Assembly: GCA_025839675.1 (NCBI GenBank)
Contig: CP104013.1
Span: 850,736 to 870,735 of the forward strand
DNA: 20,000 nt
Reading direction: 5' to 3'
Origin: Candidatus Lokiarchaeum ossiferum
Lineage (GTDB): Archaea > Asgardarchaeota > Lokiarchaeia > Sigyniarchaeales > Promethearchaeaceae
This document shows positions 1 to 16,819 of the stretch, one piece after another. The translations under genes and the position numbers were made by a program. Each line of letters begins with the position of its first letter. Position 1 is the stretch's first letter. Under the pieces are notes generated by a model that searched no databases, was not told where the DNA came from, and saw only the letters and a list, made by a program, of their open reading frames with translations.

Positions 1-3000
1 TGATAAAATGGTTGATAATAAGTCTTCTTCAGATGAAGTTTCATCAATATTTTGAGAGAAATCGGTTTCAGATGAAGATTTTGAGGAAGATTCAGTTGTA
101 ATATTTGGAGATGGAGTGTTACTATTCATATCTTGATAGTATTTACAATCAAAGATGTTTTCCATTTGCGCAGAATCTATTCCTCGAGGACAATTCACCA
201 TATTGCTACATGAAAAACATAACGGCGGTTTCTCTTCAGGGATTTCTTCTGGAGCATTCATATCACGAAATTCTTTGCACGAAAAAATAGTTTCCATTTG
301 ATCCGAATCAATTCCCCTTGGACAATCAATCATATTACTACAGGAAAAACAAAGAGGCATCCCTGATTCTTCTTCCGAATCAGCTTCTCCTGAAGAAGAA
401 CCAGACATAGTATCGTACTCATCACATTTCATACAAGATTCCATTTGAGATGAATCTAACCCTTTGGGACAATCCACCATATTTTTACATGAAAAGCAAA
501 GAGGCATTCCATCAGAACTTTCATGCATTATTTTTGGTGAAGATTTTACAGTTGGCTGGGAATCACTTCCAATGTCTATATCCCGAGATAACAATTCTAA
601 GAGATCCATATCCGAATATTCATCATCTACTTCGATATTCAATTCTTCAATTATGGAATTTTCACTTTTTAATTCAATTTTATCCCCTATTGTAGAATTT
701 TTTGCTTCAAGAGCCGATTTTTCTTGTTTCTTGTTATATTCTGATAAAAAAAGTGTTGTATATTTACTTCGATTCAATCTATATTGATCTAATTTTCCAA
801 AACGATTGAGGGCACTTGTTTGTGAATACAAGGATTCAAAGAAGTCATCGGCATAGGGTATTTCAGTGAATTGAAACCCTTCCTCAATTTCAGAAGGAAG
901 ATTCTGACAGTCATGAGCGAAAAGATCATCAGTAATCTGAAAACAGTAAGGACATATATGCTTAAATTTATAATGTTTTTTCTTTGCTTTGATGGGAGTT
1001 ATTTGTTCTGATCCTTCCGAAAGGTCATCGAATTCGGATTTAATTTCTTTCTGGGCAATTTGCTCTGCCAGTTCATCATCATATATTGATTCAAATGTTT
1101 CCTTCAAAGATGGATTTTCTTGAGTAATCAGTTTATTATATAACTGAAAAAATAATGGGGTATATTCAGTTCGATTTAACTTATTTTCATCCACAAAGCC
1201 CTTTCTCTGCCATGCGTTTATGGAATAATATAAATATAAGAAAAAGTCACTAAAACATGCTCGAATGTCAAATTGAAATGTTTCAGGAACATCTTCAGGT
1301 AATTTTGAACATTTATGAAGACTTAAATCTTCTTCCGAGATATAACAATAAGGACAAATTTGCTTAACTCGATAATTTTTTACTTTTAAACTATCTAAAA
1401 TGTTAAGTTTTTGTTCCACAAAAATTTCTTTGGGAACTCGAGAGGGTAACTCCTCTGTCACTCCTTCTACAAGAACATTTATTTCTTCAGATGTTCTCCT
1501 AGATACTATTTCTAAATCATTTGATTGTTTATTACCCGAACCTGAAAGAAATTGAGAATATTCATAAGAAAAGAGAGATGAATACTCAGATCTGTCAAAT
1601 ATAAAAAAATTGAGTATTCCTTTACTTGATAAAGAGCCTATCTTTTGGTAAATTTTTTCAAAAAACTTTGCACTAAATAGCTGAATATCAAATTTAAAAC
1701 CAGAAGGGATATGATCACAAGAATGACCAAATAGACATTCGTGTAGAGTATAACAATACGGGCAAATCTGAGGTACGGTTGTCTTTTCTACATCTATACC
1801 CTTTTCTTCAATGATTTTTTCAATTTTACCCACTTTTTGTTTTAAAGAACTATAGTAACCAGTAAGATCATAAACTACGGGGTTATCTAGAGTTTCATTG
1901 TATTCTAAAGTTATATTTGGATCTTCACTCTTTTGAAGACGATTGTGAATGCGAATAAACATTTGAAGATATTTACGCCGATTAAGACGATATTGATCAA
2001 TATGACCGTGTCGATTCAATCCATTAGAGTTTTTATATAAATCTTTAAAAAATGTAACTTGCGAGAGAAGTGCGGAATAAGAAAAATCAGGAGGAAGCTT
2101 TGCACACGTATGATTGACCAAATTAGTGGTGGATTTGTAGCAAAAAGGACAAATTTGATTCAGTTGTTGGAGTTTAAGAAGAGTTTGGCGCTCATCTTCC
2201 TTTTGTTTTTGTGCACGCTTTTCTTGAAGTTGTAAATTTTTACGTTTCTTTGCTTCAAGAAGTCGTTTCTGTTCTTCAGCAACTTTATGTCTTTCAATCA
2301 GTATTCGCTGTTTATAATCTTTGAATTTTTCCTCCTCCAAATAAGGAGGTTGGAAATATTTGGTAAACAAACGATTATATTTATTATGACTAAATTTATT
2401 GAAATCAATTTTTCCATATTTATTCAAAGCACCAATTTCACGGTACAATCGCCTGAAAAATTCATAATCTTCTCCAAGATTTAGAGTGAATTTTATGTCG
2501 GGGGGTTTCTTATCACATTCATGGTCGTAAAGGGAATTGAATGATTCAAAACAGAAGGGACAAATTTGTTTTAAATCAGAAATCTTTTGAAAAGACTTGG
2601 AATTTCTCCTAGATTTGTCTGATAAAGATGTTTTAGTTGAATTTTTATGAGATGATGGCTTAAGATTTGAACTTATTTCATCTTCTATTTTTTCCATCTC
2701 GGTTTTTTTGTGTGGTTCACTTGTAACCTTTTCATCAGGTAGAACTAATAATTTTTCAAGAACTTCTACTGATGGATCTGCAGTTTCTTCCAATGATTTT
2801 ATTGCTTGCAAAAAATTTGTTCTATATCTCTTGAGATCAAATCGATAGAGGTTTAAAAATCCGCGAGGATCCCAAATTCCTGAAGATTTATACACAAGAT
2901 CAAAAAATTCATCTGGATGTATTCTACATTGAAAAGTAAAAAATGGATTATCATTACATTTATGAGAAGACAGCCGTCGATATTTCAATCCGCAATAAGG

Positions 3001-3459
3001 GCATAATTGAACCAATTTCGTTCCTTTTGAAAATGCAAAATCATTTTTTTTTTCAACAAGCTCTATTTTTTGAGCCAATATTTCCTTAATTTGCTTTTCA
3101 TCATCGAAATTTCCATCGATTATTGCGGTTTCAAAAGAAATTTGAGGATTGTTGATTAAGCGAAGATATAATTTAATAAACGAATATTGATAAGGTGTAC
3201 GATCAAGCTTAACTACATCAATATGGCCTGATTTCTTATTAAACGCAACAGAATTATGATAAAGATAATAAAAGAACTGATCGTTGCAAATTTCTTTCTT
3301 AAACATGAAATTTGGAGGTGCAATTTTGCACTTGTGCCGAGAAATTGCTTTAAAAGATTGAAAACAAAATGGGCACACTGCACTTAACGAATAATTCTGT
3401 GTTATTGACGCATTTATTTCAGATATTCGGACCCCCCCCGAATTTACAAATTCTGTCAT
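1..3459 (-). CDS. Giant multi-zinc-finger repeat protein, 3' truncated by window edge (start ATG at 3459; >=1153 codons); 7 CP[FY]C-x9-HxC modules and 3 C-x2-C-x5-C-x14-C motifs
   Basis: I read the complement codon by codon. Lines of 60 nt are in phase with this frame, and no tta/cta/tca occurs in phase from 3459 to 1. Translation starts MTEFVNSGGVRISEINASITQNYSLSAVCPFCFQSFKAISRHKCKIAPPNF... and ends ...EEDLLSTILS at the edge. The supplied ORF track omits it because it has no stop in the window. Confidence 0.93.
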   Translation of the reverse strand, partial: MTEFVNSGGVRISEINASITQNYSLSAVCPFCFQSFKAISRHKCKIAPPNFMFKKEICNDQFFYYLYHNSVAFNKKSGHIDVVKLDRTPYQYSFIKLYLRLINNPQISFETAIIDGNFDDEKQIKEILAQKIELVEKKNDFAFSKGTKLVQLCPYCGLKYRRLSSHKCNDNPFFTFQCRIHPDEFFDLVYKSSGIWDPRGFLNLYRFDLKRYRTNFLQAIKSLEETADPSVEVLEKLLVLPDEKVTSEPHKKTEMEKIEDEISSNLKPSSHKNSTKTSLSDKSRRNSKSFQKISDLKQICPFCFESFNSLYDHECDKKPPDIKFTLNLGEDYEFFRRLYREIGALNKYGKIDFNKFSHNKYNRLFTKYFQPPYLEEEKFKDYKQRILIERHKVAEEQKRLLEAKKRKNLQLQEKRAQKQKEDERQTLLKLQQLNQICPFCYKSTTNLVNHTCAKLPPDFSYSALLSQVTFFKDLYKNSNGLNRHGHIDQYRLNRRKYLQMFIRIHNRLQKSEDPNITLEYNETLDNPVVYDLTGYYSSLKQKVGKIEKIIEEKGIDVEKTTVPQICPYCYTLHECLFGHSCDHIPSGFKFDIQLFSAKFFEKIYQKIGSLSSKGILNFFIFDRSEYSSLFSYEYSQFLSGSGNKQSNDLEIVSRRTSEEINVLVEGVTEELPSRVPKEIFVEQKLNILDSLKVKNYRVKQICPYCYISEEDLSLHKCSKLPEDVPETFQFDIRACFSDFFLYLYYSINAWQRKGFVDENKLNRTEYTPLFFQLYNKLITQENPSLKETFESIYDDELAEQIAQKEIKSEFDDLSEGSEQITPIKAKKKHYKFKHICPYCFQITDDLFAHDCQNLPSEIEEGFQFTEIPYADDFFESLYSQTSALNRFGKLDQYRLNRSKYTTLFLSEYNKKQEKSALEAKNSTIGDKIELKSENSIIEELNIEVDDEYSDMDLLELLSRDIDIGSDSQPTVKSSPKIMHESSDGMPLCFSCKNMVDCPKGLDSSQMESCMKCDEYDTMSGSSSGEADSEEESGMPLCFSCSNMIDCPRGIDSDQMETIFSCKEFRDMNAPEEIPEEKPPLCFSCSNMVNCPRGIDSAQMENIFDCKYYQDMNSNTPSPNITTESSSKSSSETDFSQNIDETSSEEDLLSTILS

Positions 3460-3697
3460 AGATCAATTAAAGTAAAGGTTTTTCGTGAGCAATAAATACA
3501 TTCATTTCTATTCCAGATACTTTTTTTTCTAATAATTCTAGGAATTTTTTTTCTAATAACCACAGTTATTGTGAAGATTTTGGAGCTTTCCTAAAAATTT
3601 TTACAATGAAAATTCCGATCTAACCACTTATGTCTTCAATAAAAACAATTTGAGAAAAATCAAAATGAACTATTATTCTTAAAAACACATTAGTAAT

Positions 3698-5704
3698 TTA
3701 GAGGAACAACTTTCCATCAGAATATATCTCACTAACAGTGACTATATTTTTTAAATCATCGTATTGATAAAGAATTATTAAATCCCCATGCTCTATATGG
3801 GATACAATACCTTTTAAGACCGCTTGAGATATATACCAAGGATCAGCTTTGATTTTGCACTCGGGATAGTTTGTACATCGATGAAAAATTTTTCGAGTGG
3901 TGACAATTTTGCTCATTTCGGCCTCACAGGAACTGCAAATTACTTTCAATTGTCCTCGATCTTGCTCCCAACGATTCATTATTTCTTTAAGTAAATCTTG
4001 TTTTTCTTCATTTGTAATTTTAATTTGAGCTTCTTCATGGATTGAAATGTCAATATTCTCCAGATCTGCAAGATTCTGAAGATCTTCTTCTGCTTTATTT
4101 GGGATAATTTCTTCAGTGCGCTTTTTCTGTCGTTTAAATAATCGAAACCTATGGCGTTTTTTTTCAAGTTTCTTTTGAATTTCTTTTTCCAATTCTTCTT
4201 CAATTTCTTTTTGGATTGCATTTTCCCGATCTTCTCGATTCGTTTCTGTTTCTTTAAAAGCATGGCATTGAAAGACTTGTTCCATTTGTTCAGAATTTAA
4301 ATTAAGAGGACAATTATCTATATGGGTGCAAATCCCACAAATTGAAATATCAGATGGAACTATCGAAGATTTATATGAAGTTGTAGAAAAATTCATGTTT
4401 TCATATAAATCACAATCAAAAATAGTTTCCATTTGAGATGAATCTACACCTTTTGGACAATCCATCATATGTGTACAGGAGAAACACCATGGCATCCCAT
4501 CATCAGGGGGTGTTTTTAAGCCTATTTTTTCCTGAGTTGACAGAGCTTTAGCGGTTTTTGCAGGTAACCCGGTGAGATCATAATCTCGAGACATCATATC
4601 TAGAACATCCATATTGGACAAATCTTGATTATCCAGCTGTGAAAGATCCATGGTGAGATCAAGATCTTCTTCATCCAAGCCATATAATGAATCGTGGAGT
4701 TTCTGCAACTTGAAATTATAAAATTGAAAGAATTCAGTCGAATAAGTCGACTGATTAATTTTTATTAAGTCAGGAGTACCATTTGGAGTAGTGATGCGCA
4801 ATTTTCGATATAAATCTTCGAAAAACAATTCTTCATTCAAAGCAGATTCAAAAGAAAACTCAGAAGGCATTTTTTCACATTTGTGATCTCTTAAAGAATG
4901 AATTACTTGCAAGCAATAGGGACATAAGACTTTTGAGGAAACAAAATTCTTCAGAGTGTCCTTTTTAGCCTTTTCAAGGATTTCCTTTTCGAATTTTTCA
5001 AAACGGGATTTCTTGTGGGATGGAGTGGAATAATTTTTCTCCATTCGAGCTTTTTCTAATGAAGGCCCTTCCATCTCCATCATACGATCATAATAAGTGA
5101 AAAATAACAACCGATAAGCCGCAGTATTCAATTTATAAAGATCCACATTCTTTGAAGAACTCCAAGCATCAAGCTTTTTATAGAGAAATATGAAGAAATC
5201 GTTCGTGCATATTTTTTCTTGAAAATGGAAATCGGGAGATAACTCCTCGGGAAGGGAAGCACAAACATGTTCAGATAAACTCGGAACACCTTCATAACAA
5301 TATGGGCAGATCTGTTTTATAAAAATAGAAGGAGGAACTGATGAATTACGAGTAACAGAACTAGTTTCAGTTTTAGCAGGATTTTTGATAATCGGATCTG
5401 TAATTTTAAAAGAAGTTTCAATAGAAGCATCTATTTCTTTTTGATATGCCCGAAGAAATGCAATTTGGTACTTCACAGGATGAAGTTTATAAATATCAAA
5501 AGTTCCTTGATCTGATAATGCATCAGATTCTTTATATATATGCTTGAAAAATGAAGCATCATCGATTTTTTTGGAAAACTGAAAATTTGGAGGAAGATCA
5601 AGGCATTGGTGCCCATAAAGAGAAAGAAAAGATTTAAAGCAAAAGGGACAAATTTGACGGTATTTTTTTAATTTTGATTCTTTTGACTCTTCATTTTTAT
5701 CCAT
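3698..5704 (-). CDS. Multi-zinc-finger repeat protein, paralogue of the 1..3459 gene: 3 CP[FY]C-x9-HxC modules, 2 C-x2-C-x5-C-x14-C motifs, and a C-terminal topoisomerase-like zinc ribbon
   Basis: 668-aa ORF. Contains CPFCFKSFLSLYGHQC, CPYCYEGVPSLSEHVC, CPYCLQVIHSLRDHKC, CFSCTHMMDCPKGVDSSQMETIFDC, CGICTHIDNCPLNLNSEQMEQVFQC and CSSC...CTNYPEC. Confidence 0.93.
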   Translation of the reverse strand: MDKNEESKESKLKKYRQICPFCFKSFLSLYGHQCLDLPPNFQFSKKIDDASFFKHIYKESDALSDQGTFDIYKLHPVKYQIAFLRAYQKEIDASIETSFKITDPIIKNPAKTETSSVTRNSSVPPSIFIKQICPYCYEGVPSLSEHVCASLPEELSPDFHFQEKICTNDFFIFLYKKLDAWSSSKNVDLYKLNTAAYRLLFFTYYDRMMEMEGPSLEKARMEKNYSTPSHKKSRFEKFEKEILEKAKKDTLKNFVSSKVLCPYCLQVIHSLRDHKCEKMPSEFSFESALNEELFFEDLYRKLRITTPNGTPDLIKINQSTYSTEFFQFYNFKLQKLHDSLYGLDEEDLDLTMDLSQLDNQDLSNMDVLDMMSRDYDLTGLPAKTAKALSTQEKIGLKTPPDDGMPWCFSCTHMMDCPKGVDSSQMETIFDCDLYENMNFSTTSYKSSIVPSDISICGICTHIDNCPLNLNSEQMEQVFQCHAFKETETNREDRENAIQKEIEEELEKEIQKKLEKKRHRFRLFKRQKKRTEEIIPNKAEEDLQNLADLENIDISIHEEAQIKITNEEKQDLLKEIMNRWEQDRGQLKVICSSCEAEMSKIVTTRKIFHRCTNYPECKIKADPWYISQAVLKGIVSHIEHGDLIILYQYDDLKNIVTVSEIYSDGKLFL
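3857..3937 (-). other. Zinc-ribbon motif (CSSCEAEMSKIVTTRKIFHRCTNYPEC), similar to topoisomerase C-terminal zinc repeats
   Basis: Pattern CxxC...F..CxNYPxC near the C-terminus of the 3698..5704 product. Confidence 0.6.
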
Positions 5705-7076: not shown

Positions 7077-7814
7077 TTATAATCGCATCGAATAAGGAAT
7101 TAGGGCCCGTCGCATTATTTTACTATAAGAATAAAGCACAGAACGCATAGATTTTACAAGACTAAGGATTAATTCTCCTTTAATGCTAGTATAATAGTAT
7201 TTCAACAAAATCATGTCTGCTTTGTGATCATGTTCCTTAAGGTTTGTATTTATGATGGTTTTTATCTCGGATAACCGTTCTTCCCTAATATCTTCATCAA
7301 TCAAATCTATTTTATGGAGAAATACATTAAATTGAGCTTTTGGTGCAACCAATGATTTCGAGTTTAATGCTTCTATTAGATCTTCCAAAATTTGATCCTT
7401 AAATTTATCAAACTGACTGATATCCATTACAAAGATGATAGAATCAGATTCACCAAAAGCTTGCTCTTGATCTAACCCAAGCCAACGTTCTATTTCTTGA
7501 CCCGCAGAATCTGCAACCCCTGCTGAAACATCCAACCAATTATAGGTATAATTTTCAATTCCTCGAGTTGGTTCCAAAGGATCATCAATCAAGGTTTGTG
7601 GACTTGAGTCTTCGAAAAACACACTCCGTATAGTAGATTTTCCTGCTGCGGGGGGACCAATGAACAATATTCGCCTGATCGATTCATCTTCATTTGCAAT
7701 TCCGAGCATTCGCATTAAAAAAGCATCGGTAGGCTCCCCTTCTTCCTTATTGGCATCAATTAATTCAGCCACTTTTTTCGAGACTTCAATTGAGACCTTT
7801 TCTTCTTCTGTCAT
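7077..7814 (-). CDS. Rag/Gtr-like (Ras-superfamily) small GTPase with about 45-aa N-terminal extension
   Basis: G1 GPPAAGKST, TRGIE switch region, G3 DSAGQE, G4 HKID. HKxD, followed here by LIDEDIREER, resembles RagA HKMDLVQEDQR. Confidence 0.82.
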   Translation of the reverse strand: MTEEEKVSIEVSKKVAELIDANKEEGEPTDAFLMRMLGIANEDESIRRILFIGPPAAGKSTIRSVFFEDSSPQTLIDDPLEPTRGIENYTYNWLDVSAGVADSAGQEIERWLGLDQEQAFGESDSIIFVMDISQFDKFKDQILEDLIEALNSKSLVAPKAQFNVFLHKIDLIDEDIREERLSEIKTIINTNLKEHDHKADMILLKYYYTSIKGELILSLVKSMRSVLYSYSKIMRRALIPYSMRL

Positions 7815-9667: not shown

Positions 9668-11449
9668 TTAGAGAATTGCAACACCAAAACCACCAATCAA
9701 CTCACCAGCTACTTGACTGATCACAATAATCTCTAAACCCGCAATAATATAATATTGAGACAAGTATTTGGTAACTTTCATCCAAGTACCTCGTTGAGGA
9801 ATAATTATGGCCAGACAAGCGTAAATTGGCATAGTTAAATAATAGATGGTGAAATACAAATCAGTAAAAAATGCAGGAGGTGGTTTACCTAACTGTAAAT
9901 TCATCCCTTGGACATCTTGCAGAGCACCCATTGTGACATTCAATAGGAAAAGAACATCTTTCATAAAGATCATAATCCCAATATTAATAATAGTGAGCAT
10001 CAGTAAAGTCCCTTTGAAGACCCCAATTACCTGCTGCCTATCCCGACGGAGCTTCAATATTTTTTCAACATTGGTTGAGATAAATTTGGATATTATTTCG
10101 GTATTACCTCCTATATCTAAACTAGAAGTAAAAATTCGAAGAAAACGATCAATAATACTGCTGGATGTGCTATCAGAAAACCATTGCCACGCAATAATCG
10201 GATCAATCCCAAATTTTGATTGGGTGTATAATAATTTAATATCAGTAGTCAAAGGACCAAATTGTTCCCGAGAGATGATGTTAACAGAATCAAAAATGCT
10301 TCCTCCTAATAATGCTGTTGTAGCGCCCAAAGTGCGAATAAAAACGGGGAAATTAGCATCCCGTCGTTTTATAATATCTTCAAATTTTTCAGCAACATAA
10401 CCAGGATAAAACATGGAGATTCCAAATATGATCATGAAAACTGGGAGAGAGATCACAGAATTACCGTCAGCATCTTTTAGAAAGAAAGTAATGAATGCCA
10501 AAATTGGCATGAAAACAAAAACACAGATTAAAAAGGAATAAAGAACTTTTTCGTACTCAGCGGTTTTCCTTTGAATATTCACCAAACCATCTTTGGGGGA
10601 GATCGCATAAAAGGCAACCATAAGAGCAATATAAACAAGTTCTATTACCCCCAAAATGAGAAATAAATTCCGAGTATTGGCAGCTTCATCACTTCCAAAA
10701 AGAAACATCATCAAAAGAAAGGTAATAGATATAAAACTCAATGAAGTGGAAAGTGCGGTAAACATATCGTTAAGTACCTCAAGGGATTTCAACTTGCGAG
10801 TATAATCCGAAATATAACCGTTTAAAACCGATTGCTGTTCTTTTAAGAAATAATCTTCTAAATTTTCACCCGCATCCAAAGCTTGGGAAAAACGGGAGAG
10901 AAAATCACCAAATCTGGAACTTGCTGTCGTAGCACTTACTTTTTTAATGCTATCTAAATATCCAAGATTCCACTCTTTCGCCATGGTACGAATTCGTTTT
11001 ACCTCTAAAGCAATTAGTCCAAAAGATTTTTCCCGACGACTTACATTCTCAAAAAGTTGATCTCGACTAGCTTTTGAGGTAGAAATACCACCCATATAGG
11101 TAACAAGCATAGGAAGAGCAGTATCAATTTGTTCTTGACGTAAAGAGCGTTTAAAATAGGGAAAGATAAAAACTATAATGAATCCAAGAAAAAAACATGA
11201 AATTGATAAAGGAAAAATTATCCCAGAAATCATAGGGCTCATTTCCAATAAAATTCCGATGATTATTCCGGACCCTAGACCACCCACTGTAATAGGGAGA
11301 AGAATTTTAAATAAATATTCACCTATGGATTTCTGTATTCCTGCTTGGATTAGTGTTTGTTGGAACGAATCAACAAGTTTCCGATAAACATCTTGCATTG
11401 TTTCTTTGAAACTTTGTTTTTTATTCTCTTCGTCTCGTTTTTCCATCAT
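9668..11449 (-). CDS. arlJ: Archaellum polytopic membrane platform protein
   Basis: 593-aa multi-TM T2SF/TadC-like protein (FPYFKRSLRQEQIDTALPMLVTYMGGIS..., GARTLGATTALLGGSIFD-like segment) immediately downstream of the arlI-like gene. Confidence 0.85.
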   Translation of the reverse strand: MMEKRDEENKKQSFKETMQDVYRKLVDSFQQTLIQAGIQKSIGEYLFKILLPITVGGLGSGIIIGILLEMSPMISGIIFPLSISCFFLGFIIVFIFPYFKRSLRQEQIDTALPMLVTYMGGISTSKASRDQLFENVSRREKSFGLIALEVKRIRTMAKEWNLGYLDSIKKVSATTASSRFGDFLSRFSQALDAGENLEDYFLKEQQSVLNGYISDYTRKLKSLEVLNDMFTALSTSLSFISITFLLMMFLFGSDEAANTRNLFLILGVIELVYIALMVAFYAISPKDGLVNIQRKTAEYEKVLYSFLICVFVFMPILAFITFFLKDADGNSVISLPVFMIIFGISMFYPGYVAEKFEDIIKRRDANFPVFIRTLGATTALLGGSIFDSVNIISREQFGPLTTDIKLLYTQSKFGIDPIIAWQWFSDSTSSSIIDRFLRIFTSSLDIGGNTEIISKFISTNVEKILKLRRDRQQVIGVFKGTLLMLTIINIGIMIFMKDVLFLLNVTMGALQDVQGMNLQLGKPPPAFFTDLYFTIYYLTMPIYACLAIIIPQRGTWMKVTKYLSQYYIIAGLEIIVISQVAGELIGGFGVAIL

Positions 11450-11485
11450 ATATCAGTTTGATTTGGTTATTTGACCATGATTAAC

Positions 11486-13273
11486 TTAGAGTGCGGCATC
11501 GTCTTCTTCCTTCATACGCCGTTTCATTGTATCTACTACTTCTTGAGGTAATTTCTTTTTGTTTTTATAAGTGGTTAATATTCGAAAGATAGTATGGTAA
11601 TTTTGAATTCCAAGTTCTCCAAACGCTTCTAGGATATGTCGTTTCGTGCGTAATTCGTCATAGAGCATTTTAATATCTTTTCGTTTTATTCCCCGTTTGA
11701 CTGCGATTTTTTGTTCAAATACATAGGATTGATTTCTAAATATATGAGTATCATCCCCTGCATCCCATGCAAAAAGCTCAACATACCTAAATTTATCTTT
11801 TTTTGGAAGATAATCAACTAATTCATTGCAAGAAATGCAACGACGTAATAATTTTCCCGTTTTTCCTTGAACTGCCATTTGTATATAGACAAGATCAAGT
11901 AAAGCAATAAATGCAGGAGGGACATTAATAGGCTTCCCAGTCATACGATTCACAAATGCTCGTACACTACCAGCGTGGAAAGTAGCAACCATCGGGTGAC
12001 CAGTTTGCATTGCTTGAAAAGCCATGTTTCCTTCTTCACCACGAATTTCTCCAATAATTATTAAATTTGGACGTTGTCTGAGAGCTGCCTTTACAAGAAG
12101 AAAAATATCCACGGGATTTCCAGCTGAAGCAGGACGGGTGACTTCTCGAGTCCAATTTTGGTGAGGCACTTTTACTTCTGGAGTATCTTCAATACTTACG
12201 ATTTTTGCATTAGGTCCAATAAAAGTGAGTAAGGCATTCAAAGAGGTCGTTTTTCCAGATGCAGTTTCACCAACAACCATCATAGAATGATGAGATTCCA
12301 GGGTCATCCATAAATATGCACATAATTGGGAACTAAGAGTGCCCCATCCAATAAGATTGACTACACTGATAACATCTTCACTAAACTTACGGATTGTGAA
12401 ATTTGATCCATGCATGGACACATCTGTTCCATAGACGATATTAATACGAGAGCCATCGGGTAAAGCAGCATCAACCACAGGATTGGAGTGGCTCGCAGGA
12501 CGTCCAGAACGTTCGCTAAGATATAGGGCAAACAAATCAAGTTCTTCATCCGTTTCAAATATAATGGTACTTTCAAGAGATTCAAAGATTTTATGTTCTA
12601 CAAAGAGTGGACCTTTCCCATTACAAGTTATATCTTCAATATATGGATCATTAATTAGTGGTTGGAGTTTTCCTAAACCAATCTTATTACGAATAAAATA
12701 ATAACGGACCCGTTCAGCGACGACGGGATCGAGCTTCAATTTGGAACTCTGTTTCAATTTGGACAGCAATTTCAAAATTGGATTTGAAGAATCTGTTTTT
12801 TCATAGGAAGTTCCTGATCCTCCACCACCGATGGAAGTATCAATTATACGAGCAGCAAACTTGTCATATAATTTAATATGATCTTCTTTATTCTCTGGAA
12901 TATCATTGTACTTAATCAAAGAGGTTAAGGTGGACATAATTTTTTCTTGAGCATCTGTAGTAGCTTGATTTAATGTAGGTTCTATTGAAGAATATAAGAT
13001 TCTGGAAGGCCCGGGATAAATATGTATAAATACAGGTCCATCTGCAGGGTATAAAACATTGGGATATTCCAATTTTTTATGCTTGCGCTCTAATTTTTCA
13101 ATATATACAGGCACCCCAATTTCTTCATTGTAGTTCTGAATTAAATAGTCCAGTACATGAGGGTATTTGGCAGTAATTTGCCTTAATACAACATTTTGAT
13201 TAATTTTGGCTTCTGCTTGGGCCATTTCTTGCGTGGACATTGTTTCTGTCATGTTTAATTCAGCATTCAACAA
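11486..13273 (-). CDS. arlI: Archaellum assembly/motor ATPase
   Basis: Type II/IV secretion ATPase: Walker A VVGETASGKTTSLNALL, IVSIEDTPEVKVPHQNWTREVTR, Walker B-like NLIIIGEIRGEEGNMAFQAMQTGHPMVATFHA. Confidence 0.92.
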   Translation of the reverse strand: MLNAELNMTETMSTQEMAQAEAKINQNVVLRQITAKYPHVLDYLIQNYNEEIGVPVYIEKLERKHKKLEYPNVLYPADGPVFIHIYPGPSRILYSSIEPTLNQATTDAQEKIMSTLTSLIKYNDIPENKEDHIKLYDKFAARIIDTSIGGGGSGTSYEKTDSSNPILKLLSKLKQSSKLKLDPVVAERVRYYFIRNKIGLGKLQPLINDPYIEDITCNGKGPLFVEHKIFESLESTIIFETDEELDLFALYLSERSGRPASHSNPVVDAALPDGSRINIVYGTDVSMHGSNFTIRKFSEDVISVVNLIGWGTLSSQLCAYLWMTLESHHSMMVVGETASGKTTSLNALLTFIGPNAKIVSIEDTPEVKVPHQNWTREVTRPASAGNPVDIFLLVKAALRQRPNLIIIGEIRGEEGNMAFQAMQTGHPMVATFHAGSVRAFVNRMTGKPINVPPAFIALLDLVYIQMAVQGKTGKLLRRCISCNELVDYLPKKDKFRYVELFAWDAGDDTHIFRNQSYVFEQKIAVKRGIKRKDIKMLYDELRTKRHILEAFGELGIQNYHTIFRILTTYKNKKKLPQEVVDTMKRRMKEEDDAAL

Positions 13274-13415
13274 TTCTCATGGAATTCATATTGAAGATGT
13301 AGAAATTGTTTCTAACCATCCAAGTAACCCTTTTTACTATATATTTGGGTTTTTAGAAATTTCTTCACAAAAAAATCAATTTTTTTATCTTAATTGAAAG
13401 AAAAAATGAAATAAT

Positions 13416-14177
13416 TTAAGCCGCAGAAATAACTGAAACCGCAATTCCAAAGGCAGAATCAATATTAAAGACAATTAATTGAGATATTTCATCTTGTGCT
13501 AACCATTTTAAAACTGAACACGCTTTGAAGGCCGTTCCATCTTCTTCTCGCTGTTCAAATCGAAGAATTAAGTCACATAAATTCATAAAATTTAATTCGA
13601 TATAGTCATATAACTCGGGGAAGTAAGTTGGAATAGTAATAATGACTGTTTTTCCACCAATGGTTAATCTTTTACACAATTCAAAGAAAAACATTACTTG
13701 TTTAGGATCAAAATTCTTTCCGACAAAATAAGTCAGGGAATCAATAATAATCACTTCGCTTTCAATGTTGGATATTAGATCAATTAACTTAAACATTACA
13801 TCAGGAGTACGTAGAACTTTTCCTGATTGAGACACAACAGGAATAATGTCAAACTGTCCAGTTAAAAAGAAATCTTCTGCTCTTTCCCAAGATAGAGAGA
13901 ACATATTTTGCACTAAACCTTTGACTGTCATCTCACTTGTGATATAGGAAACGGTCTTTCTACATCGCAAAGCACCATAAGCAATTTGTTGACACCATAC
14001 AGACTTCCCTGCCCCCATATCCCCAGCAAATACTGCAAGAGATCCACATTTTACTCCACCCCCCAGATTTCGATCCAATTCTTCATTCGTTGTGAGGAAA
14101 TATTCGGAGAAATCTTTTTCTGGCCCTTTTTTTTCTTCTTTATCTGCAAATGATTCCATAATTCTGTTTCCTCGCAT
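13416..14177 (-). CDS. arlH: Archaellum KaiC/RecA-like ATPase ArlH
   Basis: LGGGVKCGSLAVFAGDMGAGKSVWCQQIAYGAL (Walker A) and SEVIIIDSLTYF (Walker B). Gene order next to arlI/arlJ. Confidence 0.88.
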   Translation of the reverse strand: MRGNRIMESFADKEEKKGPEKDFSEYFLTTNEELDRNLGGGVKCGSLAVFAGDMGAGKSVWCQQIAYGALRCRKTVSYITSEMTVKGLVQNMFSLSWERAEDFFLTGQFDIIPVVSQSGKVLRTPDVMFKLIDLISNIESEVIIIDSLTYFVGKNFDPKQVMFFFELCKRLTIGGKTVIITIPTYFPELYDYIELNFMNLCDLILRFEQREEDGTAFKACSVLKWLAQDEISQLIVFNIDSAFGIAVSVISAA

Positions 14178-14192
14178 TAATTCGTAATGATC

Positions 14193-14729
14193 TTATGATA
14201 GGGTGTTATAAATAAATGAATCTCCGACCCCATTAGGGGTTGAAATTCGGTAATAATAGTATTGCTCCGCTATTGTTACATTAAACGTAATTGTGATATT
14301 TAAAAGCTCATGAGGATCCCAATAAGTGGGATTGTGGGACAAATCACCTAACATAGTAAACGACCAATAACATCCAGCACTGATAATTGCAGCACCTAAA
14401 TTCGAACTGGGAATCCATCTATCATAGACATATGGCCCACAATCAAGAACTTGAGTGACATTTGTAAAAACATCCATAGAGTCCAATTGATAAATAATTT
14501 CTGTTCCAATATTTTCTATCACTAAATTAATAGCCATTTCAGAAGGATCGCGCGAAGCATTAATTAATTGAATGCTTGTATGGATGCGAGAAAATTCCCG
14601 ATCGTAATTGTTTTCCTGAGCTTCTGTTATCAATTCATTAGAACTTTGAAAAGCTGAATAAAGCATAGATCCCACTAACAGAGTACAAAGAAATAACATT
14701 CCAAAGGAAATTGATACTGATTGTCCCAT
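14193..14729 (-). CDS. arlF: ArlF-like archaellum stator protein
   Basis: Single N-terminal hydrophobic helix (MGQSVSISFGMLFLCTLLVGSMLYSAF) and a beta-rich extracytoplasmic domain (AINLVIENIGTEIIYQLDSMDVF). Position next to arlH. Confidence 0.65.
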   Translation of the reverse strand: MGQSVSISFGMLFLCTLLVGSMLYSAFQSSNELITEAQENNYDREFSRIHTSIQLINASRDPSEMAINLVIENIGTEIIYQLDSMDVFTNVTQVLDCGPYVYDRWIPSSNLGAAIISAGCYWSFTMLGDLSHNPTYWDPHELLNITITFNVTIAEQYYYYRISTPNGVGDSFIYNTLS

Positions 14730-14764
14730 TTTTTTTCAAGTTTTTTTTATGTTCAAAGAAAATT

Positions 14765-15244
14765 TCAAATTGAAAATTGATAAATTTCACTAATTCCTGA
14801 TATAGCGATAACTATTTGATGAGAACCAGAATTAATTGACTCACCATCAGGAAAATACATGCGAACTATAATTGTCTCGAGTGGATCCCAAATATTGTTT
14901 CCATTGTCGTTCAAGATAGTTGCATTCCATCGAAAAAGACTTGTGTCCGCACTGTCAAGGTAATAATAGTCCCCATCTAAGAAGACATCCATTTCAGAGA
15001 AGGACCCCACAGATGCATCCCCAAGATTCTTCACATAACCATATATTGTTGAATTCCCCGCTTCTGTGTTTCCTATAGCAAGTACTTCAAAATCAGTATT
15101 AATTTGATTAGCAAAATTTTGACCGCTGTTGTTAATTGATGCACCTATTGCAGCCGCTACAGTAAAAGCCGCTGCGATGACAACTATAGTTGTTACAATC
15201 GACGCTGTAGACATTATTCCAGTTGATACTGCATTATCACTCAT
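14765..15244 (-). CDS. arlG: ArlG-like archaellum stator protein
   Basis: N-terminal helix IVTTIVVIAAAFTVAAAIGASINNSGQNFANQINTDFEVLAIGN, resembling the ArlG N-terminus, plus a beta-rich domain. First gene of the minus-strand cluster. Confidence 0.65.
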   Translation of the reverse strand: MSDNAVSTGIMSTASIVTTIVVIAAAFTVAAAIGASINNSGQNFANQINTDFEVLAIGNTEAGNSTIYGYVKNLGDASVGSFSEMDVFLDGDYYYLDSADTSLFRWNATILNDNGNNIWDPLETIIVRMYFPDGESINSGSHQIVIAISGISEIYQFSI

Positions 15245-15409: not shown

Positions 15410-16819
15410 ATGACAGAAGCAAAAGATTTATTATTAGTTTGGATCGGTCAAGCGGGAGTAAATATTGCCGAAAGATTTTGGGCATATGCATATGAAACGC
15501 TAGGTATTCCAGTACCAATCAAAACGGGAGATATTCCCGCAGACATTGATAAGATGCTCGATAAGAAGTTAGAAATGACAGAATTCTATACAGAATACGA
15601 AATTGAAGAAGCACGTCGGATGTTCTTCTACAATCTGCTAGATGATAAAGATCGAGCTAGTAATAAACAAAAAAAATATATCCCGCGATCTATTTTTATT
15701 GATTTGGAAGCCCAACCAGTTCGGAGTTTTCATGAACGAAATTCCCATATTTTTCCAAAGGATGATTTTATCTACAATACATTCGGATCTCATTCAATGT
15801 GGGCACGGGCCAAGCGTATTGGTACCAATTTAAAACCATACATCCTTGATCGAATTCAATCTCTTATTCAAATGCGTGCGATTCAAAACTTAGAAGGCAT
15901 AATAATAATTCATGCAACGGGAGGTGGAGCAGGATCTGGACTTCTTGATAGTGTATTTGAAGTTCTGCAAGATAAGTTCCCAAAAGTCCCTACCCTCACT
16001 TTTTCAATTTTTCCAAGTCGAAAACTCAGTGGAAATGTTATTGAAGCATATAATACAATTTATGCAGCAAACAGTTTATTAGCAAATGCAAGTGCAACAG
16101 TGTTACTTGACAATGATAAAATAATTAATTTGGTAAAAGAAAAATATCAGATTGAATCACCCACTTATGAAGATATTAATATGATAATCTCTCGGTTAAT
16201 ATTCAGTGTGATTATGCAAATTGCAATGCCTGGTGCCATCATTCGGGCGGATTTCAATAAATTATTCACAAATTTAGTACCCTACAAATACATGAAATTT
16301 TTGTTAGCAGGTATTGCTCCCTTTAAATTTGATGAATTTTCTCAAAATTCTACAGAAGATCTAGTGAAAGAGCTCACTGATGAGCAGAATTATATGGCCG
16401 ATGTAAACTTTGGTACAGGTAAATATGTATCTACCATGTATTTCTTCATGGGAAAACTAGGTCCTGAAGTGAAAACTCCTCTCCGAATTGCCAAAGAAAA
16501 TATGGATTTTATGCCATGGATTCCGACTGGTATGTTCATAGGAATTACTCCACGAGAAAAAATGACCCTTGATGGGATGCCTCTTTTACGTCAAGGAATT
16601 GTTTTAGCAAATAATTCGGCAATGCGGTTTATATTTCAAAGAACTATGGCACAATTTCAAGTGATGTTTAATAAAGGTGCATTTATGCACCATTTTAAGA
16701 AAGAAAACATAGATGCGGAAAAAGAATTGAAACAAGCCGCAGCCAATATTACACGAATGATGAAATTTTATGAGATTGCAGAAAAATCTACAACTAAAAA
16801 ACGAACTGTTAAATCCTAA
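15410..16819 (+). CDS. Tubulin-family GTPase (artubulin/eukaryotic-tubulin-like)
   Basis: WIGQAGVNIAE (T1), PRSIFIDLEAQPV (T3 region), IIIIHATGGGAGSG (tubulin signature at 15920..15940), FSIFPSRKLSGNVIEAYN, LLDNDKI, PTYEDINMIISRL, ADFNKLFTNLVPYKYMKFLLAGIAPF (T7/H8), and a C-terminal FMHHFKKENIDAEKELKQAAANI helix. Length is 469 aa. Confidence 0.93.
   Translation: MTEAKDLLLVWIGQAGVNIAERFWAYAYETLGIPVPIKTGDIPADIDKMLDKKLEMTEFYTEYEIEEARRMFFYNLLDDKDRASNKQKKYIPRSIFIDLEAQPVRSFHERNSHIFPKDDFIYNTFGSHSMWARAKRIGTNLKPYILDRIQSLIQMRAIQNLEGIIIIHATGGGAGSGLLDSVFEVLQDKFPKVPTLTFSIFPSRKLSGNVIEAYNTIYAANSLLANASATVLLDNDKIINLVKEKYQIESPTYEDINMIISRLIFSVIMQIAMPGAIIRADFNKLFTNLVPYKYMKFLLAGIAPFKFDEFSQNSTEDLVKELTDEQNYMADVNFGTGKYVSTMYFFMGKLGPEVKTPLRIAKENMDFMPWIPTGMFIGITPREKMTLDGMPLLRQGIVLANNSAMRFIFQRTMAQFQVMFNKGAFMHHFKKENIDAEKELKQAAANITRMMKFYEIAEKSTTKKRTVKS

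Follow-up and report, generated by a model that had tools for sequence, protein, structure and literature searches.

Among the described zinc fingers closest to those reported here is that of Ros87, a member of the Ros/MucR family, in which a short finger, unstable alone, forms part of a larger globular domain that supplies additional helices and an extensive hydrophobic core. A module of comparable design is present in ten copies in two neighbouring minus-strand genes (hereafter gene 1 and gene 2) of the Asgard archaeon Candidatus Lokiarchaeum ossiferum, within the 20,000-nucleotide stretch that we analyzed (contig CP104013.1, positions 850,736 to 870,735; referred to below as the window). 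In both proteins the modules form an array that is followed by a shared C-terminal tail. We consider that the modules represent a new zinc domain family arranged in arrays (probability approx. 0.85) and we tentatively propose that the array proteins function as nucleic-acid scaffolds (approx. 0.4).

Two array genes with ten C2HC modules

Besides seven C2HC modules, the visible part of gene 1 (the long paralogue) contains an acidic motif and three Cys4 motifs (38 cysteines in total), and its full-length orthologue P0001 (97% identity, 1273 amino acids) is a hypothetical protein of a second Ca. L. ossiferum genome. The product of gene 2 (the short paralogue), which is identical (100%) to P0005 (NEF87_000691, Ca. 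L. ossiferum), is composed of three C2HC modules, an acidic motif, two Cys4 motifs, a charged helix, a topoisomerase-type zinc ribbon and a C-terminal beta domain (22 cysteines). We found no description of either protein in the literature.

A search of all six frames of the whole window with the pattern C..C.{9}H.C returned exactly 10 matches, all of them within the two genes and at precisely the coordinates listed in a preliminary description of this DNA (Table 1). Shuffling of both proteins gave a mean of 0.0005 matches expected by chance. Apart from the absence of annotation, nothing favours the view that these are spurious or decaying open reading frames (ORFs) with fortuitous Cys/His patterns. 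Such an artefact, which we regard as hardly credible, is excluded by the number of matches, the existence of orthologues (34-97% identity), the low ratios of non-synonymous to synonymous polymorphism (pN/pS, 0.13-0.17) and a confident fold prediction.

The modules are separated by flexible linkers of 36-69 amino acids, rich in K/R and D/E, which fits the variable, Lys/Glu-rich linkers reported earlier. No tandem repeat of module size is present at the DNA level, which indicates that the module copies are old and are not an assembly artefact. The window as a whole is low in GC (30-38%); the composition of the locus is unremarkable, with the same GC content (30-34%) as its flanks.

In an alignment of the ten modules (each of approx. 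90 amino acids) the residues C7, P8, C10, H20, C22, P26, F44, F45, Y49, Y71 and F75 are invariant, and L17, F33, F35 and G59 nearly so, at a mean pairwise identity of 31%. This agrees with the consensus proposed in the preliminary description, in which a C2HC finger is followed by an FF..LY and a Y...F segment. The constant finger spacing noted there holds for all ten copies as well as for 43 of the 43 non-redundant modules of the wider family. Approximately 19% of the module residues are aromatic, basic or polar residues are conserved at positions K75, N77, R78 and K80 of the family alignment, and a conserved polar motif, D-x-[YH]-[KR]-L-N-[RQ]-x-K-Y, occupies the start of the last helix.

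Module 6 of gene 1 was modelled with AlphaFold2, with the ten window copies alone as the input alignment. The single module folded confidently, with a predicted local distance difference test score (pLDDT) of 90.7 (86-91 in all five models) and a predicted template modelling score of 0.81. The first half of the model consists of a beta-hairpin at the C-P-x-C knuckle (strands 5-6 and 13-14), a three-residue helix (17-19), H-x-C and an extended F-x-F; the second half contains a helix carrying FF..LY (42-51), a small bridge and a helix carrying Y...F...Y (68-84). The predicted finger is thus made up of two short strands and a helix of just three residues, compared with the beta-beta-alpha arrangement of classical C2H2 fingers.

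According to this model, the module is a self-contained domain of approx. 80 residues, in which a compact C2H2-like finger is packed on two helices through a core that is predicted to be unusually aromatic (F-x-F, FF..LY and Y...F..Y). The model is metal-free, and it is the invariant C, C, H and C ligands that make it very probable that the module binds zinc.

The preliminary description could assign the combination of this finger with the FF..LY/Y...F segment to no known domain, and the searches bear this out. Pfam and NCBIfam contained no family for the module, either in scans of the whole proteins or in scans of the 43 non-redundant modules singly (E<=10); zf-C2HC_2 (PF13913) matched none of the modules, and the ubiquitin-binding fingers of UBZ type (zf_UBZ, UBZ_FAAP20 and related Pfam families) matched neither modules nor whole proteins. 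Among PDB sequence profiles the best match was the POGZ finger 2E72 (E=0.054 and 0.65), confined to the finger and not significant, and Foldseek searches with the module model gave no match (best E of 9 in PDB and 2 among the viral models of BFVD). The full module was therefore matched to no characterized family.

Distribution and evolution of the module

An exhaustive search of 1.84 billion protein representatives with a hidden Markov model (HMM) of the module, an approach already advocated in the preliminary description, identified 22 proteins at E<=0.001, of which 14 carry the whole module. The named proteins of this latter group belong to Ca. L. ossiferum and to one Promethearchaeota metagenome-assembled genome, and the others come from ENA, Logan and JGI metagenomes. 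No eukaryotic protein with the full module emerged from this search, and the module appears to be confined to Lokiarchaeum-like Asgard archaea. The modules form a new domain family, based on a zinc finger and very narrow in its lineage range.

In the remaining matches the similarity covers profile positions 2-27 only, and the named proteins of this kind are molluscan (Batillaria, Littorina, Haliotis and Potamilus). These finger-only relatives, the components of the shared tail (see below) and the confinement to Lokiarchaeum-like archaea had been overlooked in the preliminary description.

The module alignment was too poorly conserved for a search of viral contigs. No relatives were detected among IMG/VR viral contigs with the C-terminal alignment. 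The same query found nothing among metagenome contigs, nor did this query or gene 2 find anything among genome contigs, and these two scans are uninformative with regard to distribution. With the coiled-coil partner protein (see below) as the query, one metagenome contig of 1.5 kb was found, which is too short to reach the upstream gene.

Comparison of individual modules revealed that, for modules 1, 4, 5, 6 and 7 of P0001, the highest score in P0003, a protein of 34% identity, falls to the module with the same number. In the short paralogue all three modules are collinear with their counterparts in P0006, and two of the three with those in P0009. Judged by these scores, the modules are positional orthologues between species.

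Between the two L. ossiferum genomes the pN/pS of gene 1 is 0.17 overall, 0.07 in the modules and 0.38 outside them; the corresponding values for gene 2 are 0.13, 0.10 and 0.17. Positional orthology together with this partition of pN/pS indicates that the arrays are old, that each position has been kept, and that the modules are the most constrained parts of the proteins.

The shared C-terminal tail

In both proteins and in all full-length relatives the modules are followed by an acidic motif, Cys4 repeats, a charged helix and a C4 ribbon domain. The acidic motif, which contains DMDLLELLSRDIDI in the family, is located after the module array and before the Cys4 repeats; it is short and amphipathic, with the pattern [DE]-MD-[LV]-L-[DE]-[LM]-[LM]-S-R-D-[IY]-D-[LI]. 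Similar motifs were recognized by eye in the other full-length members, where a regular expression failed to pick them up. The motif might serve as a short linear motif for interactions.

The Cys4 repeat is present in 1-3 copies per protein, and its four cysteines are invariant; the window contains five copies and the family as a whole 18. Its consensus is P-L-C-F-S-C-x-N-M-x-x-C-P-x-G-x-D-S-x-Q-M-E-x-I-F-x-C, or C-[FGM]-[SIN]-C-x5-C-P-x13-C in the family form, and it had no match in Pfam or among PDB profiles. The spacing C-x2-C-x5-C recurs in the [4Fe-4S] sites of EndoIII/MutY and AddB/Dna2. The Cys4-repeat region (amino acids 985-1140 of P0001, about 40-507 in the window) also showed a weak similarity (E=0.0014, 19 bits), perhaps compositional, to the phage family phrog_15341, whose function is unknown.

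The C-terminal domain, which terminates in SEGKLFL in the family and in SDGKLFL in gene 2, is the best-conserved segment of the family (mean column identity of 67%); its counterpart in gene 1 lies past the left edge of the window. All 10 family C-termini tested match PF01396 (Zn_ribbon_Top1), with a best E of 2.6e-8. In the tail model the C-terminal domain has a pLDDT of 80-90 and the first Cys4 motif one of 64-80. A PDB profile search with the C-terminal domain gave no match.

Gene neighbourhood

The positions of the modules, tail motifs and other features of the window, together with the gene order of the related loci, are given in Table 1.

Table 1. Features of the window and organization of related loci. 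Positions refer to the window, except for loci L001-L006, where they are those of the downstream trio of genes; aa, amino acids; pI, isoelectric point.
Feature	Position	Strand	C2HC finger	Remarks
Gene 1, long paralogue	1..3459	-		Continuous ORF; cut by left window edge, 1153 of 1273 aa visible
Gene 1 module 1	3148..3387	-	3328-3375	aa 25-104, pI 9.5
Gene 1 module 2	2776..3015	-	2956-3003	aa 149-228, pI 9.0
Gene 1 module 3	2335..2574	-	2515-2562	aa 296-375, pI 8.8
Gene 1 module 4	1924..2163	-	2104-2151	aa 433-512, pI 10.0
Gene 1 module 5	1537..1776	-	1717-1764	aa 562-641, pI 6.3
Gene 1 module 6	1129..1368	-	1309-1356	aa 698-777, pI 4.9; copy modelled with AlphaFold2
Gene 1 module 7	727..966	-	907-954	aa 832-911, pI 4.6
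Gene 1 acidic motif	571..621	-		EYSDMDLLELLSRDIDI
Gene 1 Cys4 motif 1	424..498	-		C-x2-C-x5-C-P-x13-C
Gene 1 Cys4 motif 2	277..351	-		
Gene 1 Cys4 motif 3	145..219	-		
Gene 2, short paralogue	3698..5704	-		ORF of 668 aa
Gene 2 module 1	5423..5662	-	5603-5650	aa 15-94
Gene 2 module 2	5081..5320	-	5261-5308	aa 129-208; nearest counterpart gene 1 module 6
Gene 2 module 3	4697..4936	-	4877-4924	aa 257-336
Gene 2 acidic motif	4574..4624	-		DLSNMDVLDMMSRDYDL
Gene 2 Cys4 motif 1	4412..4486	-		
Gene 2 Cys4 motif 2	4265..4339	-		Divergent
Gene 2 C-terminal domain	3701..3958	-		aa 583-668; Topo-IA-type C4 zinc ribbon (aa 590-616), helix, three-stranded sheet
Small GTPase	7077-7814	-		Best match Gtr1/RagA, E=1.9e-20
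Archaellum cluster	9668-15244	-		FlaJ-like T2SSF, FlaI-like T2SSE ATPase, KaiC-like FlaH, two archaeal flagellins
Tubulin-family gene	15410-16819	+		Tubulin E=1.8e-34, Tubulin_C E=3e-12
Window locus				Short protein followed by long paralogue; later genes past window edge
Locus L003	13916-16613			Long paralogue, ~335-aa coiled-coil + HTH_11/TrmB winged helix, 148-aa protein, ~390-aa Fer4 + CCG protein
Locus L001	7273-10009			Gene order identical to L003
Locus L005				Long paralogue, then contig end
Locus L006	2179-4927			No long paralogue; coiled-coil, 148-aa, Fer4 + CCG genes in order
Locus L002	2761-4223			No long paralogue; coiled-coil and 148-aa genes follow; Fer4 + CCG gene missing

A gene for a protein with a long coiled coil and a C-terminal winged helix follows the zinc-finger genes in four of the five loci with visible downstream sequence (the exception being L004). 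Between loci this protein is 64-72% identical, the 148-aa protein 58-68% and the Fer4 + CCG protein 38-47%, and the downstream partners are better conserved than the zinc-finger proteins (34-45%). A relative with five modules (P0004) has a different gene context. The 148-aa protein shows a weak match to DUF6630; PDB sequence searches with the coiled-coil and 148-aa partners gave nothing informative, and neither PADLOC nor PHROG offered a fitting family for any of these proteins.

The presence of the Fer4 + CCG gene raises the question of redox or metal sensing, or of metal buffering, in which the many cysteine sites would bind and release zinc or Fe-S clusters according to the redox state, in connection with the downstream Fe-S oxidoreductase. 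This gene follows in three loci, AhpC/Redoxin genes lie nearby in L003 (together with DsrE) and in L006, and the Cys4 repeat has the C-x2-C-x5-C spacing associated with [4Fe-4S] sites. On the other hand, the gene is gone from L002, which keeps the other partners, and is less conserved than the coiled-coil gene. Moreover, metal buffering would not require helical parts as elaborate and position-specific as those of the modules, and no thioredoxin- or metallothionein-like features appeared in the Pfam and NCBIfam results. We therefore regard a redox or metal-related role as very unlikely.

The conserved gene order also bears on the possibility that the genes belong to a mobile element, a virus or an anti-virus defence system. 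The narrow distribution, the large repetitive proteins, the weak phrog_15341 match of the Cys4 region (E=0.0014) and the occurrence of related fingers in mollusc immune proteins would be in keeping with such an origin. However, PADLOC gave no real match (coiled-coil and winged-helix noise only), IMG/VR held no relatives, the GC content resembles that of the flanks, and the gene order is chromosomal and syntenic across genomes whose zinc-finger proteins share about 35-45% identity. A defence or phage origin was rejected on the PADLOC and PHROG results, and we consider membership of any such element to be highly improbable.

The other genes of the window suit an Asgard archaeon (DUF1499, a Gtr1/RagA-type GTPase, a GNAT acetyltransferase, an archaellum cluster and a tubulin with Tubulin_C). 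The GTPase belongs to a eukaryotic-signature family; its gene occupies the same position in the second L. ossiferum genome and is absent from the related metagenomic loci with visible flanks. The archaellum cluster has the zinc-finger genes on one side and the tubulin gene on the other, and the latter is presumably among the L. ossiferum Asgard tubulins of recent microtubule papers (e.g. PMC13394414).

Possible function of the array proteins

We propose that the array proteins would act as multivalent scaffolds, with the conserved tail as their anchor on nucleic acid (most probably DNA). Each position-specific module would offer a binding surface centred on D-x-[YH]-[KR]-L-N-[RQ]-x-K-Y, and the proteins would probably act together with the conserved downstream coiled-coil winged-helix protein. 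Anchoring of the tail to nucleic acid is suggested by the topoisomerase-type ribbon, by the linkage to the winged-helix partner and by the kinship of the finger with DNA-binding fingers. The conserved K75, N77, R78 and K80 of the modules are a further lead towards nucleic acid.

Several observations weigh against this proposal. The match of gene 2 to PF01396 (E=2.3e-6, 27.7 bits) is below the 32-bit cut-off, and Foldseek comparison of the C-terminal model with PDB gave nothing significant (RelE/ParE at E~0.4, E. coli Topo I at E=0.63). The link between the Loki finger and DNA-binding fingers is transitive, with a circular step through the molluscs (see below). The net charge of the modules ranges from +9 to -6, as a gradient along gene 1, unlike that of a uniform nucleic-acid binder, and both proteins are acidic overall (pI of about 5.5), with tails of -33 in gene 1 and -23 in gene 2. 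Within gene 1, modules 1-4 are basic (pI 8.8-10.0, +3 to +9) and modules 5-7 acidic or neutral (pI 4.6-6.3, -1 to -6).

The charge range and the overall acidity make a protein-recruiting scaffold a serious rival, in which each module would recruit its own partner (e.g. a cytoskeletal, trafficking or ubiquitin-like protein) and the tail would serve only for localization or oligomerization. Many C2HC and UBZ fingers bind proteins. In addition to the wide variation of charge along gene 1 (from pI 10 down to 4.6), this reading is favoured by the fact that the modules differ from each other (31% identity) yet are positionally conserved across species, as if each had its own ligand, by their high aromatic content (~19%), and by the nature of the mollusc proteins with the related finger, which are signalling proteins with CARD or Mab-21 domains.

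However, neither UBZ nor any other protein-binding finger family was matched, and the window neighbours (the RagA-like GTPase, tubulin and archaellum genes) are absent from the related metagenomic loci with visible flanks. The stably linked genes code for a winged-helix protein and for one that has a zinc ribbon of the DNA type. We consider the protein-protein scaffold somewhat less likely, and we retain the nucleic-acid scaffold as the preferred reading.

A bolder extension of this reading would combine three elements: the module would be a new fold; its finger would be a true homologue of the Ros/MucR and C2H2/C2HC fingers, and an archaeal intermediate between them; and the arrays would form, with the winged-helix partner, an Asgard-specific DNA-organizing complex. 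We regard the combination as quite improbable.

Asgard genomes encode many lineage-specific proteins of unknown function, among which the present module is unusually well defined, with ten copies in a cultured, testable organism. The family answers no long-standing question directly. If its fold were new, it would add one more class of zinc finger; if the finger were homologous to those of Ros/MucR and C2H2 proteins, it would bear on the origin of eukaryotic zinc fingers; and if the arrays and their coiled-coil winged-helix partner jointly organize DNA, the chromosome biology of Asgard archaea would gain a new component. Should none of these be true, this is a narrow orphan family of local interest.

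Comparison with known systems

The tail contains a putative counterpart of the topoisomerase IA ribbon (PF01396), with C-x2-C-x16-C-x5-C and N-Y-P-E-C; the gene 2 copy scores below the curated cut-off. Unlike topoisomerase IA, the array proteins lack the catalytic domain, and the helix and three-stranded sheet that follow the ribbon are family-specific, with no neighbour in PDB.

With regard to the finger, the mollusc proteins are the sole non-family matches of the exhaustive search (E of 1.9e-13 to 2.8e-4, summed over repeats). These gastropod and bivalve proteins (P0013 and P0016-P0023), several of which possess Mab-21 (cGAS-like) or CARD domains, carry 1-7 tandem fingers of the type C-P-T-C-G-K-x-F-K-Q-L-S-x-H-K-C-K, with the same C-x2-C-x9-H-x-C spacing. 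Their coverage by Pfam is partial (zf-C2HC_2 positions 2-14 of 25, and DUF7573), and they seem to represent a class of short C2HC fingers, so far undescribed, in immune proteins of invertebrates.

The Loki and mollusc fingers share an identical C-P-x-C-x3-F-x2-L-x2-H-x-C pattern, but the mollusc repeats are bare fingers of ~20 residues set in Ser/Pro-rich linkers, without the helical segment of ~55 residues present in the Loki module. Profile-profile comparison with hhalign gave a probability of 96.9% (E=1.9e-10, 23 columns). Since the Loki profile itself served to select the mollusc set, there is some circularity in this result. The resemblance may reflect either homology or convergence. The mollusc fingers in turn align with Ros/MucR (probability of 90%, 17 columns), and their top matches in PDB are consensus C2H2 fingers ('CPECGKSF').

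The spacing of the first three ligands, C-x2-C-x9-H, is common to Ros/MucR (PF05443; 2JSP) and to every one of the 10 window and 43 family modules. The two also have in common a design in which additional helices and a large hydrophobic core support a short finger. Ros/MucR differs in the fourth ligand, which is a His 3-4 residues past the first, as opposed to the invariant Cys at H+2 of the Loki module. The helical parts do not align, and Ros/MucR proteins have a single domain, whereas the Loki proteins have arrays of 3-7.

The 43 modules compared by hhalign with nine Ros/MucR sequences gave a probability of 1.9% (17 columns, all within the finger), and the Loki modules compared with Ros87 alone (sequence confirmed against 2jsp_A) gave 8.4% (19 columns). 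PF05443 matched none of the 43 modules at E<=10, and the Foldseek search of PDB with the module model did not return 2JSP. Membership of the module in Ros/MucR was ruled out, despite the shared spacing, by the two hhalign comparisons.

Classical C2H2 fingers (PF00096) resemble the Loki finger in the C-P-x-C-x3-F hairpin knuckle followed by a His-bearing helix, and the predicted secondary structure of the Loki finger may follow the same beta-beta-alpha order. The Cys-to-His spacer of the classical finger is 12 residues and its closure is H-x3-5-H, compared with 9 and H-x-C in the Loki finger, and the Loki module is four times the size. PF00096 matched one of the 43 modules (E=0.37) and had no match in the whole proteins.

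Among PDB sequences the module profile is matched best by the atypical POGZ finger (2E72), in which closure is likewise by H-x-C with C-P after it; the alignment of this finger to the Loki module is limited to the finger region and requires a three-residue insertion. These comparisons indicate that the first ~20 residues of the module are a compact C2H2-like finger closed by H-x-C, and that the other ~55 residues are lineage-specific.

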